A stretch of DNA of 64,000 nucleotides from Escherichia coli (GTDB lineage Bacteria; Pseudomonadota; Gammaproteobacteria; Enterobacterales; Enterobacteriaceae): the NCBI RefSeq assembly GCF_003790525.1, contig NZ_CP033635.1. One strand, written 5' to 3'. Shown piece by piece: positions 6,484 through 12,873 of the stretch. A program made the position numbers and the translations under genes. The notes under the pieces were generated by a model, which was not told the DNA's origin, did no database searches, and saw nothing but the letters and a program-made list of their open reading frames with translations. Position 1 is the stretch's first letter. Each line of letters begins with the position of its first letter.

Positions 6484-6686
6484 AACCTCACTCCCAGCGG
6501 ACGACGGCGACGTCGGGTTGTCCCCAGTACCGACTCCGCATCATTGATCGCCCGGTTAAGCTCATCCAGAGAAGCCGCCGTATATTCAATTCTGCGACCA
6601 TCTTTCTGGACAGACACCACCCGTTTACCGGTTAATAAATCAAGGCGCGCCTGACGCAGCGCCTGCAGTTCAGCGACTGTAACCAT
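6480..6686 (-). CDS. W: Phage head-tail joining protein W
   Basis: 68 aa MVTVAELQALRQARLDLLTGKRVVSVQKDGRRIEYTAASLDELNRAINDAESVLG..., lambda gpW-like; 4-nt overlap with B. Confidence 0.85.
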   Translation of the reverse strand: MVTVAELQALRQARLDLLTGKRVVSVQKDGRRIEYTAASLDELNRAINDAESVLGTTRRRRRPLGVRL

Positions 6687-8598
6687 TCACTCCTCCGGAC
6701 AGCTTCGCTGCCAGTTCTTTAAGGGTTGGCCGGGTCGTCTCTTCTTCCCGGGATTTTGCCAGTACAGCCAGATCAAGCTGCCAGCGTTGCACGGACACAC
6801 GTAATGCCGCGTAGGCATACACCAGGCAGTCCAGCGCTTCGTTACGCCGCTTTTTGTTATCCCACAGCAGACGCATCTTTCCTTTTTCCCACTTCTCCAC
6901 AAGCTCTTCCGCGACCAGTTGCTGCGCCTCTGTCTGCGAAAAAATCTCCGGATCATCAGGAAAACGAATGGCATACGACGTGGATTCATCCGCAGGCGTG
7001 GGAGCGGCTTTCATACGGGCATAGAGAATTTCTTTTGCGGTGTCCGTGCCCACTTCACACAGATACACGCCCCGCTGATTGCGGGTTTTTGGCATGGTGA
7101 TCACCGGCTTGCCATAGACAGATGCGCCTTTTACCGGCAACACCCGGAAAACACCGTGTTTTTTTGACCTCTGATAAACGATTTCTCCATCGATCCCCCC
7201 GATGTCCCAGCAGACACGGGAAATGGTCATTTCGGTTCCGTCTGCATGGCGGTATTTTTTGTTGATCGCCGCATCCACACGTAACAGCGTCTCTTCCTCA
7301 TCGGGACGTCCCATAATGATGATTTTATCCACCAGAAAGGCTTCCTCTCCCGGAGCCCATCCCCAGACATACATCTCAAAACGGTTTCGCTGCGAGTCAA
7401 TGCCCGCCGTCAGATAAACCACCCGGGCAGGCACCGCCGCCGTGTAACGCACAACCTTATCCATCAGTACCTGGTGATCGAGTTTTTCGCCCACGGCCTC
7501 TTCCCAGGTCTCGCCCAGCGTGGTGTTCACAAAGGTTTTCAGGCCGTTGGGATCTTTCAGTGCATCCAGCCAGTCATAGACAATCTGTACCCAGGTGGTG
7601 AACGGACTGTACGCCGTCCAGATATGGAAAGTGATGGAGCGCGGCGGCGGAATTTCATTATCCGCGGCGCTGAAAAACATCAGGCCGTCACGGGTCCACA
7701 TGCCCGTGTTTTCACAGATCCACCGCCCGTTACTCTGGTCAAGCTCAGACTGATGGATCACACAGCCATGATGCTCACAAAGGTAGAAAACGCTTTCGGG
7801 GCTGTCCTTCTCCCATTTAAGGCCAAAAGGCGTGGATTCATCGCCAAATTTCAGATACTGCTCCTCCCCACAGTGCGGGCAGGGCACATAAAAACGCATG
7901 AAATGTGCCGACTCGTTAGCGGCTTTTTCGATCTGGCAGGAGCCTTTGATTTTAGGCGTCGAGCCGCGAATGGATTTTGGCCATACAGAGCCCTCAATAC
8001 GCTTATCCCCCAGCAGGGTTGGCGAGCCCTCTTTTTCAACATCCGGTTCGAACGAGGAAAGCTCGTCATAGCAGACCACGTCCACGGATTTTTCACGGTA
8101 GTTTTTTGCTGCCGCACCACCCAGGCACCAGAAGCCCACACCCGATGAAAAGCGTTTCAGCGTGAGAGTATTGTCACGATGTTTACGCCCCAGCCATGGA
8201 GAAAGGTCTTTCAGGCATGGCACATCCCGAATCGTCGCCTCCACGTGAGACTTCATAAAATCTTCAGCGGCAGAATCCGTGGGCTGAAAAAGCAGACTGT
8301 TTCGGGATTTATGCTCAATAAAATACCCGACCACCCCCAGCAACATCTTTGTATAACCAATACGGGCAGATTTAATCAGGTTAACAGTGCGAATCAGATC
8401 GTTGCCCATACAGTTCATGATGGCGATCTGGAACGGCAGCGTTTTCCATTCTCCCTCACCATATGAAGATTCTTTAGGCAGATAATAATTTTGATCAGCC
8501 CATTCAACTGGCGTCACCGGCAATGCCCTTATCAGGGGCTGTAATGCTGTTGTGACAGCACTCATCATATTATTCAGTTGTTGCTCTGATATATTCAT
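6670..8598 (-). CDS. A: Terminase large subunit A
   Basis: Long ORF with lambda gpA blocks (WADQNYYLPKESSYGEGEWKTLPFQ, KRFSSGVGFWCLGGAAAKNYREKSVDV, FMRFYVPCPHCGEEQYLKFGD, FHIWTAYSPFTTWVQIV); start placed at MNISEQQ (ORF track start 8655 is upstream in frame). Confidence 0.9.
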   Translation of the reverse strand: MNISEQQLNNMMSAVTTALQPLIRALPVTPVEWADQNYYLPKESSYGEGEWKTLPFQIAIMNCMGNDLIRTVNLIKSARIGYTKMLLGVVGYFIEHKSRNSLLFQPTDSAAEDFMKSHVEATIRDVPCLKDLSPWLGRKHRDNTLTLKRFSSGVGFWCLGGAAAKNYREKSVDVVCYDELSSFEPDVEKEGSPTLLGDKRIEGSVWPKSIRGSTPKIKGSCQIEKAANESAHFMRFYVPCPHCGEEQYLKFGDESTPFGLKWEKDSPESVFYLCEHHGCVIHQSELDQSNGRWICENTGMWTRDGLMFFSAADNEIPPPRSITFHIWTAYSPFTTWVQIVYDWLDALKDPNGLKTFVNTTLGETWEEAVGEKLDHQVLMDKVVRYTAAVPARVVYLTAGIDSQRNRFEMYVWGWAPGEEAFLVDKIIIMGRPDEEETLLRVDAAINKKYRHADGTEMTISRVCWDIGGIDGEIVYQRSKKHGVFRVLPVKGASVYGKPVITMPKTRNQRGVYLCEVGTDTAKEILYARMKAAPTPADESTSYAIRFPDDPEIFSQTEAQQLVAEELVEKWEKGKMRLLWDNKKRRNEALDCLVYAYAALRVSVQRWQLDLAVLAKSREEETTRPTLKELAAKLSGGVNGYSR

Positions 8599-9079
8599 CG
8601 AGTAAATCCGGTAATTTATCCCCTGCCCGCGCACACTGATTTGCCCCCTTCGCAATAAGGGTTTTCAGATGGTCAAGATGGCGCGGTGTTAAATCAGGAA
8701 ACTGTCGTTGCATGGATAAAGGGATGGAATCAAGCGTACTGGATAACGCCATTGCCAGCTTGCTGAGGGCAAAAATACAGAACCCGGTGTCAATAAGTTT
8801 TCCTTTTGACACCTCATTTTTTAACTGCTGTGTAACAGCCTGTTCTGCTGTCAGTTCCCATCTGGCAATAAGCAATTTCTCCTCATAGTCGTCTTCGCTA
8901 TCGCCATCAGGCACATCGTTTTTACTTCTTCTCAGATACGATATGTAAAAATCACGCCAGGCATCCAGATCCAGTTGCCCTCGCTTATTCGATATCGGGG
9001 CACCCGGCAATTTCTGCAGTCTGCGAAGCTGGCGATCGGTCAGACTCAAATGCCTGGCAACTTCAGTCTGCGTAGCCAC
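8570..9079 (-). CDS. Nu1: Terminase small subunit (Nu1-like)
   Basis: 169 aa; N-terminal HTH-like MATQTEVARHLSLTDRQLRRLQKLPG; immediately between cos and A; C-terminal region resembles lambda Nu1. Confidence 0.8.
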   Translation of the reverse strand: MATQTEVARHLSLTDRQLRRLQKLPGAPISNKRGQLDLDAWRDFYISYLRRSKNDVPDGDSEDDYEEKLLIARWELTAEQAVTQQLKNEVSKGKLIDTGFCIFALSKLAMALSSTLDSIPLSMQRQFPDLTPRHLDHLKTLIAKGANQCARAGDKLPDLLDEYIRATTE

Positions 9080-9149
9080 TGTTCACCTCGCAAAAAATCT
9101 CCCCTCATGCGTTTTAAACATGCATCTTGCGAGCAACTTTATGCAAACG

Positions 9150-9330
9150 CACGCATATGTCCGGTTTGTTTGTACATTTTTTGCACATGTCCGGTTCGCA
9201 GAAAGCATGTTTTTATATTTTTCATATAGTTAACTTGCAGAGAAACCGGACATGGATCCCGGAAAATTTTCATAAATAGCGAAAACGCGCGAGGTCGACG
9301 CCCCGTAACGGGTCCACATGCCGGAAAGGA
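9150..9330 (-). other. cos packaging site (cosN around 9292..9304 plus cosB-like repeat sites toward Nu1)
   Basis: Reverse complement of 9255..9305 reads GGGGCGTCGACCTCGCGCGTTTTCGCTATTTATGAAAATTTTCCGG, almost identical to the lambda cos sequence as remembered (GGGCGGCGACCTCGCGGGTTTTCGCTATTTATGAAAATTTTCCGG); three copies of ATGTCCGGTT (9154..9167, 9184..9198, inverted at 9244..9255) sit between cosN and the Nu1 start like lambda R sites. Confidence 0.65.
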
Positions 9331-9502
9331 CCCGCAAAATGATAATAATTATCATCTACATGTCACAACGTGCATCTACGCCATCAAACCACGTCAAATA
9401 ATAAATTATGACGCAGGTATCGTATTAATTGATCTGCATCAACTTAACGTAAAAACAACTTCAGACAATACAAATCAGCGACACTGAATACGGGGCAACC
9501 TC

Positions 9503-9697
9503 ATGTCAACGAAGAACAGAACCCGCAGAACAACAACCCGCAACATCCGCTTTCCTAACCAAATGATTGAACAAATTAACATCGCTCTTGAGCAAAAAGG
9601 GTCCGGGAATTTCTCAGCCTGGGTCATTGAAGCCTGCCGTCGGAGACTAACGTCAGAAAAGAGAGCATATACATCAATCCAAAGAGATGATGAATAA
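9503..9697 (+). CDS. Small basic hypothetical protein, possible ribbon-helix-helix DNA-binding protein
   Basis: 64 aa ORF between cos and bor; arginine-rich N-terminus then IRFPNQMIEQINIALEQKG, reminiscent of RHH folds. No stronger evidence. Confidence 0.3.
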   Translation: MSTKNRTRRTTTRNIRFPNQMIEQINIALEQKGSGNFSAWVIEACRRRLTSEKRAYTSIQRDDE

Positions 9698-10054
9698 ACA
9701 TCCCGGTTTCTTCCACCATCGCACCGGAAAAGCGACTATGAGGGTAACCCTGCGTCTGTCAGCACAGTAAAACCCGGTGTGCATCGTTTTTGATTATTCC
9801 CGCACACTCGCGCAGAGGAGTTCCCCGTCGGGCTACGGTCATGGTTAATGCGGGAATACGGCGACGATGCAGCGCAGCTAAAAGGGTAATGGACGGATAG
9901 ACCGGTTTATTTCATTCTACAGGATTCTGAGTGTCCCCAACTCCCTCCAATCGTCTGAGCGCCACCTGTGTAGTTTTAATTTTCATCAATCCATTTAACT
10001 ATCGTTTAATTGTTGTCACATAGGATTCTGCCGTTTTTAACAATGCAGGATAAT

Positions 10055-10351
10055 AAGATGAAAAAAATGTTGTTTTCTGCCGCTCTGGCAATGCTTATTA
10101 CAGGATGTGCTCAACAGACGTTTACTGTTGGAAACAAACCTACAGCCGTAACACCAAAGGAAACCATCACCCATCATTTCTTCGTTTCGGGAATTGGGCA
10201 GAAGAAAACTGTCGATGCAGCAAAAATTTGTGGTGGTGCAGAAAATGTGGTTAAAACAGAAACCCAGCAAACATTCGTAAATGGATTGCTCGGTTTCATC
10301 ACTTTTGGCATTTATACTCCGCTGGAAGCGCGGGTGTATTGCTCAAAATAA
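10055..10351 (+). CDS. bor: Bor lipoprotein (serum-resistance / Iss family)
   Basis: MKKMLFSAALAMLITGCAQQTFTVGNKPTAVTPKETITHHFFVSGIGQKKTVDAAKICGGAENVVKTETQQTFVNGLLGFITFGIYTPLEARVYC matches lambda Bor as recalled, including lipobox LITGC; opposite strand to the lysis genes as in lambda. Confidence 0.9.
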   Translation, partial: KMKKMLFSAALAMLITGCAQQTFTVGNKPTAVTPKETITHHFFVSGIGQKKTVDAAKICGGAENVVKTETQQTFVNGLLGFITFGIYTPLEARVYCSK

Positions 10352-10382: not shown

Positions 10383-10859
10383 CTATCTGCACTGCTCATT
10401 AATATACTTCTGGGTTCCTTCCAGTTGCTTCTGCATCGTCATCAACCGTTCTCTGAGGGTGAAATAATCCCGTTCAGCGGTGTCTGCCAGTCGGGGGCTG
10501 GTTGCATTATCCACGCCGGAGGCGGTGGTGGCTTCACGCACTGACTGACAGACTGCTTTGATGTGCAACCGACGACGACCTGCGGCAACATCATCACGCA
10601 GAACATCATTTTCAGCTTTCGCATCAGCTAACTCCTTCGTGTATTTTGCATCGAGCGCAGCAACATCACGCTGACGCTGCTGCATGTCAGCGATGGTGGC
10701 GATCGCCTGCTTCAGCTCACTGACTTTTTTATCGCGCTGCTCTTTGTAAGTGATGGCGTTATCGCGGTAATGATTGACCGCCCACGACAGGCAGACGATG
10801 ATGCAGATAACCAGAGCATAAATAATCGCGGCGACTCTGCTCACTGATCTATTCCCCAA
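10383..10859 (-). CDS. Rz: Spanin inner-membrane subunit Rz
   Basis: 158 aa; [36 protein letters not shown]...[64 protein letters not shown], near-identical to lambda Rz. Confidence 0.9.
10442..10624 (-). CDS. Rz1: Spanin outer-membrane lipoprotein Rz1 (embedded in Rz, +1 frame)
   Basis: 60 aa [60 protein letters not shown]; lipobox VVGC and proline-rich core as in lambda Rz1. Confidence 0.85.
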
Positions 10860-12719: not shown

Positions 12720-12796
12720 TGGACCGCCACCGGGGACTCGAACCCCGCACAGTCAGCTTAGAAGGCTGATGCTCTCTCCTGATGAGCTAGTAGCGG
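12720..12796 (-). tRNA. argN: tRNA-Arg (anticodon UCU)
   Basis: Minus-strand read CCGCTAC..CTCATCAGGAGAG..CAGCCTTCTAAGCTG..GGGGTTCGAGTCCCCGGTGGCGGTCCA: 7-bp acceptor (one G-U), anticodon loop with UCU, T-loop TTCGAGT, encoded CCA. Confidence 0.8.
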
Positions 12797-12797
12797 T

Positions 12798-12873
12798 TGG
12801 TGGCCCTTGCTGAATTTGAACCAGCGCCCTTGCGATTATGAGTCGCTCGCTCTCACCACTGAGCTAAAGGGCC
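12798..12873 (-). tRNA. ileZ: tRNA with CAU anticodon (Ile2-lysidine type or Met)
   Basis: Minus-strand read GGCCCTTTAGCTCAGTGGTGAGAGCGAGCGACTCATAATCGCAAGGGCGCTGGTTCAAATTCAGCAAGGGCCACCA: canonical cloverleaf, anticodon CAT, encoded CCA; resembles the ileX/ileY-type tRNA carried by lambdoid phages. Confidence 0.8.

Follow-up and report, generated by a model that had tools for sequence, protein, structure and literature searches.

A lambda-type cos site with three divergent candidate terminase-binding repeats in an Escherichia coli prophage

Three copies of the sequence ATGTCCGGTT lie between the cohesive-end sequence cosN and the gene for the small terminase subunit (TerS) of a lambda-like prophage in Escherichia coli. 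Which protein binds these repeats, and does it read them with the specificity of phage lambda? The prophage was analysed within a window of 64 kb from contig NZ_CP033635.1 (GCF_003790525.1), where it is oriented on the minus strand. Phage base pairs (phage bp) are counted from the cosN cohesive end. By sequence comparison, window positions 9156-9333 (minus strand) are the cohesive-end site (cos) of this prophage, with the order cosQ, cosN, and cosB. The three repeats are most likely binding sites of TerS, with a specificity that seems to differ from that of lambda.

The cos site and its three repeats

The original prediction of a lambda-type cos with three repeats is borne out: cosQ, cosN, and cosB lie directly upstream of Nu1/A-type terminase genes, and the repeat is present in three exact copies. 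In the whole window, ATGTCCGGTT occurs exactly three times, at 9157-9166 (+), 9187-9196 (+), and 9244-9253 (-). All three copies fall within 97 bp between cosN and the TerS start codon. Shuffled sequences give an expectation of 0.18 copies, and none of 100 shuffles reaches three. The 11-mers CATGTCCGGTT and AACCGGACATG at 9186-9196 and 9244-9254 are perfect inverted copies of each other, separated by 47 nt, and the copy at 9157-9166 repeats the one at 9187-9196 directly over 14 nt, at a distance of 30 nt. No further copy is found in 8400-9450 at up to three mismatches, including the inside of terS, where N15 has its rR2 site. A scan for promoters and terminators yielded nothing that accounts for the repeats, and a literature search for the motif returned only unrelated primer sequences.

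When the sites are compared by phage bp (Table 1), the R3-I1-R2 core of the lambda design appears to be kept in the window. In both lambda and the window, R3 occupies about bp 50-60 and is followed some 57 bp later by an inverted R2; in the window, the interval contains a candidate I1-like site for integration host factor (IHF). Phage 21 shares this complex cosB layout, with R3-to-R2 distances of 58 versus 59 bp. The I1-like site is a weak match, with two mismatches to WATCAANNNNTTR, as has lambda's I1 by manual count. In a manual comparison that includes the annotated I1 of phage 21, its orientation is the same as, and its position nearly equivalent to, those of lambda TAACTTAATG and phage 21 TAACTTTTTG. 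The claim that the repeats are spaced as in lambda stands for R3 (bp 51-60 for the shorter repeat; lambda core at 53, phage 21 site at 50-65) and for R2 (bp 108-117), but fails for R1 (bp 138-147), which has the orientation of R2. R1 is oriented in this way in the relatives as well, whereas R1 of lambda and 21, at about bp 150-166, has the orientation of R3 (PMC4669245). R1 is also closer to R2, at 30 bp versus 46 bp in lambda.

Alignment with the lambda cos confirms that cosN is nearly identical to lambda's. The cohesive ends GGGCGTCGACCT and GGGCGGCGACCT (lambda) agree in 11 of 12 bases, the flanking CG dinucleotides are kept, and phage bp 1-45 are identical at 43 of 45 positions. The single cohesive-end change, G6T, creates GTCGAC. 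The T6 variant is rare, being present in one of 40 distinct relatives, but it also occurs in E. coli B771 and in three loci of the IMG/VR database, and this recurrence indicates that it is genuine. The cohesive end GGGCGTTAGACC of phage phiARM81ld likewise has T at position 6. The stretch equivalent to the I2-like spacer is annotated as IHF site I2 in the phage 21 record M81255. Lambda bp 41-47, just left of lambda R3, constitute one TCCGGTT core; the window has TCCGGGA there.

The cosQ heptamer aligns with those of lambda and 21, and every relative examined has kept it. The heptamer lies in a 7-bp inverted repeat, CGGGTCC ... GGACCCG (9309-9315 and 9328-9334, 12 nt between the arms), that is absent in lambda, 21, and most relatives.

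At the other end of cos, the TerS start of the window is at phage bp 225. Most relatives have it at bp 196, so that R1 and the start are 29 bp further apart in the window. The difference is accompanied by an insertion of about 29 bp at about 9105-9133, between R1 and the TerS ribosome-binding site. Part of the insertion (9116-9132) and a stretch beside R2 (9196-9212) form a 17-nt inverted repeat that is 82% complementary.

Table 1. Features of the cos region and terminase genes, with the R sites of lambda and phage 21 for comparison
Feature	Window position	Strand	Phage bp	Remarks
cosQ, GGGTCCT, packaging-termination signal	9327-9333	-	-29 to -23 (counted on the lambda record)	same sequence as lambda and 21, same distance to cosN
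cosQ-cosN spacer, TTCCGGCATGTGGACCCGTTACG	9304-9326	-		unusual type, unlike lambda and most relatives (..CGGCGATCCGACAGGTTACG)
cosN cohesive-end 12-mer, GGGCGTCGACCT	9292-9303	-		inferred nicks at both borders
cosN-to-cosB spacer, including I2-like TATGAAAATTTTC	9259-9291	-	13-45	one base off lambda (G17C)
R3-equivalent, CATGTCCGGTT	9244-9254	-	50-60	exact copy; R3 position of lambda, 21, and N15 (PMC9026076)
I1-like IHF site, TTTCATATAGTTA (complement TAACTATATGAAA)	9220-9232	+	72-84	in the A/T-rich spacer between R3 and R2
R2-equivalent, CATGTCCGGTT	9186-9196	+	108-118	inverted relative to R3
R1-equivalent, TATGTCCGGTT	9156-9166	+	138-148	inverted (R2 orientation), 30 bp from R2
Leader from R1 to TerS start	9080-9155	-		Shine-Dalgarno GAGGTG at 9084-9089; holds the lineage-specific insertion of about 29 bp
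TerS, small terminase	8570-9079	-	start 225	169 aa; GTG start at 9079; predicted N-terminal winged-helix domain, residues 1-56 (8912-9079)
TerL, large terminase	6670-8598	-		gpA type; start MNISEQQ overlaps the TerS end
Lambda R cores			R3 53-64; R2 109-120 inverted; R1 155-166 direct
Phage 21 (M81255 annotation)			R3 50-65; I1 72-86; R2 107-122 inverted; R1 150-165 direct; terS start 189

The TerS DNA-binding domain and its linkage to the repeats

Similarity of the window to lambda is interrupted over cosB and the start of terS. In a megablast search against about 50,000 phage records, lambda-like phages match only 9259-9500 (92.6% to lambda). The similarity covers the right end of lambda through cosN and stops at 9259, just before R3. 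A more sensitive search with cosB and the 5' half of terS finds only the five PhiR12 phages, at 89%. On the protein side, TerS of lambda, 21, N15, phi80, and Gifsy-1 align with the window TerS only from about residue 57-73 on, and the Pfam family Phage_Nu1 covers only residues 49-150 (profile positions 62-163 of 164). Because the DNA similarity to lambda stops before R3 and the TerS similarity resumes only after about residue 57, cosB and the TerS DNA-binding domain can be described, at the sequence level, as one contiguous divergent cassette, about 400 bp long, within packaging genes that otherwise resemble those of lambda. Lambda and the window have the C-terminal two thirds of TerS and a gpA-type TerL in common.

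TerS residues 1-56 begin with MATQTEVARHLSLTDRQLRRLQKLPGAPISNKRGQLDLDAWRDFYISYLRR. Searches with this domain gave nothing in NCBIfam, only a sub-threshold match to sigma-70 region 3 in Pfam, and, with a 59-aa query in a large protein database, only E. coli fragments. A profile built from 12 family members and compared with lambda Nu1 residues 1-68 by hhalign aligns with Nu1 residues 5-51 (E 5.6e-5, probability 66%), which puts the recognition helix at residues 15-22. Because the AlphaFold2 model of full-length TerS, with a predicted template-modelling score (pTM) of 0.36, was too poor for a fold search, the domain was modelled on its own. The domain model has a predicted local distance difference test score (pLDDT) of 86.6 and is sequentially composed of a strand, helix 4-10, helix 15-22, a wing, and helix 38-54. 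Its best Foldseek matches include excisionases, BldC, the phage TerS domains 7LW0 and 7LWR, RppC (template-modelling score, TM, 0.76), and lambda Nu1 1J9I (TM 0.66). Residues 1-56 are thus predicted to form a MerR-like winged helix-turn-helix of the gpNu1 type.

The repeats are better conserved than their surroundings. Relatives were collected as 80 IMG/VR loci with a 99%-identical TerS, of which 77 kept the full 340-nt upstream region, representing 40 distinct upstream sequences. Columns that vary in at least two of the 40 sequences number 2 of 30 in the repeats and 30 of 80 in the spacers (Fisher p = 0.001, a value that is indicative only because the sequences are related). R3 is invariant in the 40 relatives. 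R2 is nearly invariant, and only a single sequence has it elsewhere than at bp 108. One base of R1 varies, giving the alternative forms AACCGGACAT and AGCCGGACAT.

The repeats are also linked to the TerS domain. A pattern scan of IMG/VR for R3-N(42-52)-R2 gave at least 120 matches, and among the 80 matches listed, the gap between R3 and R2 is exactly 47 nt in every one. Among these 80, a window-type TerS begins 60-107 nt downstream in 64 (nearly all 74-107), six are too near a contig end, and ten are without it. The same cosB and domain also follow at least three further inferred cohesive-end 12-mers, among them GGGTCGTAGGAC and GGGCGGGAGCGG, and occur with several left flanks. A search for R3-N47-R2 in the representative genomes of 100,044 species found no match. 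This complex form may be largely confined to non-representative E. coli strains, or the pattern may be too strict.

More distant TerS proteins that carry the same domain (MATQxEVAxHLxLSDRQ) at 30-50% identity are found in 705R4-like E. coli phages, in Aeromonas and Pseudomonas phages, and in several metagenomic lineages. The named examples are Aeromonas phiARM81ld and PhAER-1 and Pseudomonas LPPA33. Immediately upstream of terS, at about bp 50-70, all of the distant relatives have a tandem TTCCGGTTCCGGT(T). Coordinates in phiARM81ld are fixed because its record begins at the cohesive end. One lineage whose recognition helix is lambda-like (ERTIRNWQK) has a lambda-like TTTCCGTTTCCG in place of the tandem core. 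This correspondence suggests that TCCGGTT is the core read by this domain family, and that the window holds a 'complex' three-site version of a specificity that also exists in a 'simple' one-site version. The ends of the LPPA33 record contain an inverted duplication around the likely cohesive end GGTAATTCGAG, and the record was probably linearised or assembled wrongly at cos.

The window-type cassette is present in phages as well as prophages. PhiR12_1 to PhiR12_5, plaque-forming phages deposited as complete genomes, have K-12 or E. coli C as host. Their TerS is 99.4% identical to that of the window, and all three repeats are present; since both TerS and the repeats are carried, the cassette should work in active phages. 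At least 80% of window 8800-9330 is present in 1149 of 5426 complete E. coli genomes (about 21%).

Packaging specificity and alternative explanations

Only three packaging specificities of lambda-like cos systems are documented, those of lambda, 21, and N15 (PMC4669245). The original prediction held that the repeats differ in sequence from lambda R sites and suggested a distinct TerS specificity. The first statement is correct, with the refinement that the window repeat is akin to known R boxes: it has TCCG..TT in common with lambda and CATGTC in common with 21. The suggestion is supported by the TerS DNA-binding domain, which is correspondingly divergent and linked to the repeats, by the conservation of the repeats, and by TCCGGTT in the distant relatives.

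Lambda specificity is characterized by the R box CGTTTCCKTTCT and a helix with Q20/E24; the window has CATGTCCGGTT and R19/K23. The window domain is missed by the Nu1 Pfam profile and by BLAST, and its terS starts at bp 225 versus 191 in lambda. Specificity of phage 21 is characterized by TCRTGTCGGnCC boxes and E20/S24. The 21 boxes (TCATGTCGGnCC) share only CATGTC and GG with the window repeat, which has TCCGG, with an extra C, versus TCGG, and another 3' half. The 21 domain cannot be aligned with that of the window by BLAST, and the recognition helix is PRTIERWQS in 21 and DRQLRRLQK in the window. Positions 20 and 24 set the discrimination between lambda and 21 (PMC4669245), and R19/K23 at these positions are unlike the residues of both. 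N15 has R3 GAGGTTGTTGTT at bp 48-59, which the window does not have, and a domain unlike the window's (N15 record, PMC4669245). The R box of Gifsy-1, CAGATCCKTTCT, also differs from CATGTCCGGTT.

A precedent for two versions of one specificity is provided by N15, with a simple cosB, and Monarch, with a complex cosB (PMC4669245). The relatives with the window domain follow the same pattern, with either one compact site at the R3 position before terS (705R4-like phages, phiARM81ld, LPPA33) or three dispersed sites (the window group). They differ from N15 and Monarch in the recognised core, TCCGGTT versus GAGGTTGTTGTT, and in the domain, and their compact sites are tandem duplications of the core. 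Taken together, the window cassette appears to be another packaging specificity, one that is common in E. coli. The compact-site relatives in Aeromonas and Pseudomonas phages offer a natural series for the joint change of a winged-helix terminase domain and its DNA site.

The site anatomy, the joint divergence of cosB and the TerS domain, their conservation, and their linkage are directly observed in the sequences; binding, bending, nicking, and a specificity separate from lambda, 21, and N15 are what we infer from them. In the proposed mechanism, the winged helix-turn-helix at the N terminus of TerS would bind the three CATGTCCGGTT repeats, which would be the R sites of cosB. On the model of lambda, a TerS dimer may bridge R3 and the inverted R2 over a bend in the A/T-rich, IHF-site-like spacer. 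Bound TerS would anchor the gpA-type TerL on cosN, about 40 bp away, and TerL would introduce nicks 12 bp apart to produce 5'-GGGCGTCGACCT cohesive ends. R1 is probably accessory, and cosQ would serve in termination.

Several observations weigh against the repeats being TerS sites of the lambda design. The orientation of R1 is opposite to that of R1 in lambda, 21, phi80, and Gifsy-1, and departs from the published rule for cosB, in which R2 is opposite to both R3 and R1 (PMC4669245, PMC9026076); the lambda model is therefore not fully transferable. When the cores are aligned with those of lambda and 21, R3 of the window is 2-3 bp nearer to cosN; in lambda, the distance from R3 to cosN can be altered only slightly (PMC4669245). 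A scan of the window with the IHF consensus at two mismatches gave 602 matches versus 583 expected, with no enrichment. The scan is uninformative alone, so the I1-like call rests on positional homology with the annotated I1 of phage 21. Within the close family, the repeats and the domain do not vary, which leaves no real covariation, and conservation by itself does not tell which protein binds. A profile of the TerS domain searched against PDB sequences did not find Nu1 and gave only marginal matches to eS10. The Foldseek matches are MerR-like winged helices with TM values of 0.57-0.76, but all E-values exceed 0.1, owing to the small size of the domain.

Three other explanations were weighed. 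The most probable of them, still unlikely, is that the repeats are TerS sites whose specificity is not distinct, such that the prophage takes part in cross-packaging with lambda- or 21-type terminases through common R-box sub-motifs. The shared CATGTC (21 R boxes, TCATGTCGG) and TCCG..TT (lambda, TTTCCGTT) and the TCCGGTT core within lambda itself are consistent with this idea, and the N15 terminase packages lambda DNA despite a very different R3 and recognition helix (PMC4669245). However, the R boxes match under no gapless alignment, the residues at both discrimination positions are unlike those of lambda and 21, and smaller differences suffice for these two phages to exclude each other by more than 1000-fold (PMC4669245).

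It is less probable again that the site is of the right kind but a relic here, with G6T in cosN or defects elsewhere blocking cutting so that nothing is packaged. Many E. coli prophages are defective, and the rare G6T change falls in the half of cosN where mutations are reportedly harmful (PMC4669245). Against this, the reading frames of TerS, TerL, and the head genes are unbroken and all three repeats are exact; moreover, T6 recurs in other genomes with different left flanks and in the phiARM81ld cohesive end.

That the repeats bind another protein, such as a late-gene regulator or the ribbon-helix-helix-like DUF3950 protein encoded next to cos, or are structural DNA, is very improbable: although conservation identifies no binding protein and a small hairpin overlaps R3, the repeats match the lambda and 21 positions of R3 and R2, travel with the TerS domain through different cosN and left-flank contexts, and are kept in PhiR12_1 and in the second cos of a satellite (described below), where the left flanks are unrelated and no DUF3950 gene lies beside cos.

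The satellite EcCICFT073 and the neighbourhood of cos

Where the window-type cosB occurs with no terminase, the locus is a small island located between roxA and phoQ, with genes for an integrase, a primase, capsid-like proteins, and Rpp. In E. coli CFT073, the island is the satellite EcCICFT073. Two cos sites are present in it. The upstream site, before rpp, has GTGAAGGTGACACCACCACC after cosN and the rpp start near bp 102, and it matches the published cos1, the site that RppA-TerS recognises and on which lambda and phi80 transfer depends (PMC6092414, PMC6739421). The 20 cosN-proximal bases of the window's unusual cosQ-cosN spacer (CGGCATGTGGACCCGTTACG) are 1 nt off the corresponding stretch of this cos1.

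The downstream site lies just after rpp at NC_004431.1 1388095-1388330 (minus strand), inverted relative to the Rpp-recognised cos upstream of rpp. After its cosN come CATGTCCGGTT, an I1-like site, AACCGGACATG, and AACCGGACAT. The site thus shares cosQ, cosN, R3, the I1-like site, R2, and R1 with the window, at the same spacing, and is nearly identical to PhiR12_1; it differs in its position after rpp and in having no terminase gene. From the published description of cos1, with the rpp start near bp 102, the downstream site is probably the published cos2. In the literature library searched, cos2 is mentioned only in PMC6092414 and PMC6739421, which report no recognisable phage cosB in the island and leave cos2 unexplained.

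The homology between the phage cosB and the downstream site of the satellite ends 1-2 nt after R1. This amounts to a natural deletion experiment, in which the satellite would mark cosQ through R1 as the functional unit. The leader at 9080-9155 is probably outside cos, because it is absent from the satellite cos2.

CFT073 carries both the 21 type and the window type of terminase, in different prophages. A lambda-like prophage next to potB, about 30 kb from the island, encodes a TerS identical to that of the window (169/169). Its cosB has an exact R3, a variant R2 (AACCGGGCATG), and a variant R1 (AGCCGGACATG). In the icd prophage, TerS is identical to gp1 of phage 21, and so is the cosB to that of 21. 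We take it to be the published 'helper phage 4 / TerS-21' on the basis of TerS identity, prophage order, and the label 'TerS-21' of Murialdo and Feiss. The assignment of 'helper phage 4' to the window TerS type was considered and rejected, since the TerS of the icd prophage is 21 gp1.

The presence of a window-type cos in the satellite leads to the hypothesis that cos2 lets EcCICFT073 be packaged directly by helpers with a window-type TerS. In its wider form, the proposal is tentative and somewhat less likely to be right than wrong: the cassette would represent a fourth, largely orthogonal specificity; EcCICFT073-type satellites would carry it as cos2 for direct, Rpp-independent packaging by such helpers and use cos1 with Rpp for lambda-, phi80-, and 21-type helpers; and the cassette would move between phages and satellites by recombination at cos. 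The proposal offers an explanation for the second cos of EcCICFT073, whose cosB is used by neither lambda TerS nor RppA-TerS, and has a practical bearing on predicting which prophages mobilise which satellites or cos plasmids. The main value of the analysis lies in the prevalence of the cassette, the simple-versus-complex series across genera, and the link to the second cos of the satellite.

Three IMG/VR loci, on two contigs, are identical to the window at 769 of 774 positions from cosQ through TerS, including the spacer and the G6T variant. They have satellite genes (encoding a 137-aa protein, a decoration-like protein, and a capsid-like protein) directly to the left of cos and a window-type cosB, TerS, and TerL to the right. 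The arrangement points either to phage-satellite recombination at cos or to contigs joined during assembly at the shared repeat.

In the window, the prophage is ordered on the minus strand as lysis genes R (11374-10841) and Rz (10859-10383), cos, TerS, TerL, and the portal and head genes. The Nu1-type TerS and gpA-type TerL genes directly adjoin cos. The TerS protein is named simply 'terminase small subunit' in RefSeq (WP_000235436.1), and PHROG 57 covers its full length. TerL matches the Pfam families GpA_ATPase (1.1e-54) and GpA_nuclease (7.6e-71), and the RefSeq annotation of its homologues has the same extent.

The gene of the DUF3950 (YlcI/YnfO family) protein lies beside cos on the opposite strand (9503-9697, +). 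The protein is of 64 aa and has, by eye, the look of a ribbon-helix-helix DNA-binding protein; EcCICFT073 also encodes a YlcI/YnfO family protein. As in lambda, a Bor/Iss-like lipoprotein gene of opposite orientation (10010-10351, +) stands between the lysis genes and cos. The Rz gene (10383-10859, -) has an embedded Rz1-like lipoprotein frame (10442-10624, -). Two adjacent tRNA genes, a tRNA-Arg (anticodon TCT) and a tRNA-Met-like gene (anticodon CAT), are located at 12720-12873 (-) in the late region of the prophage, upstream of the lysis genes.

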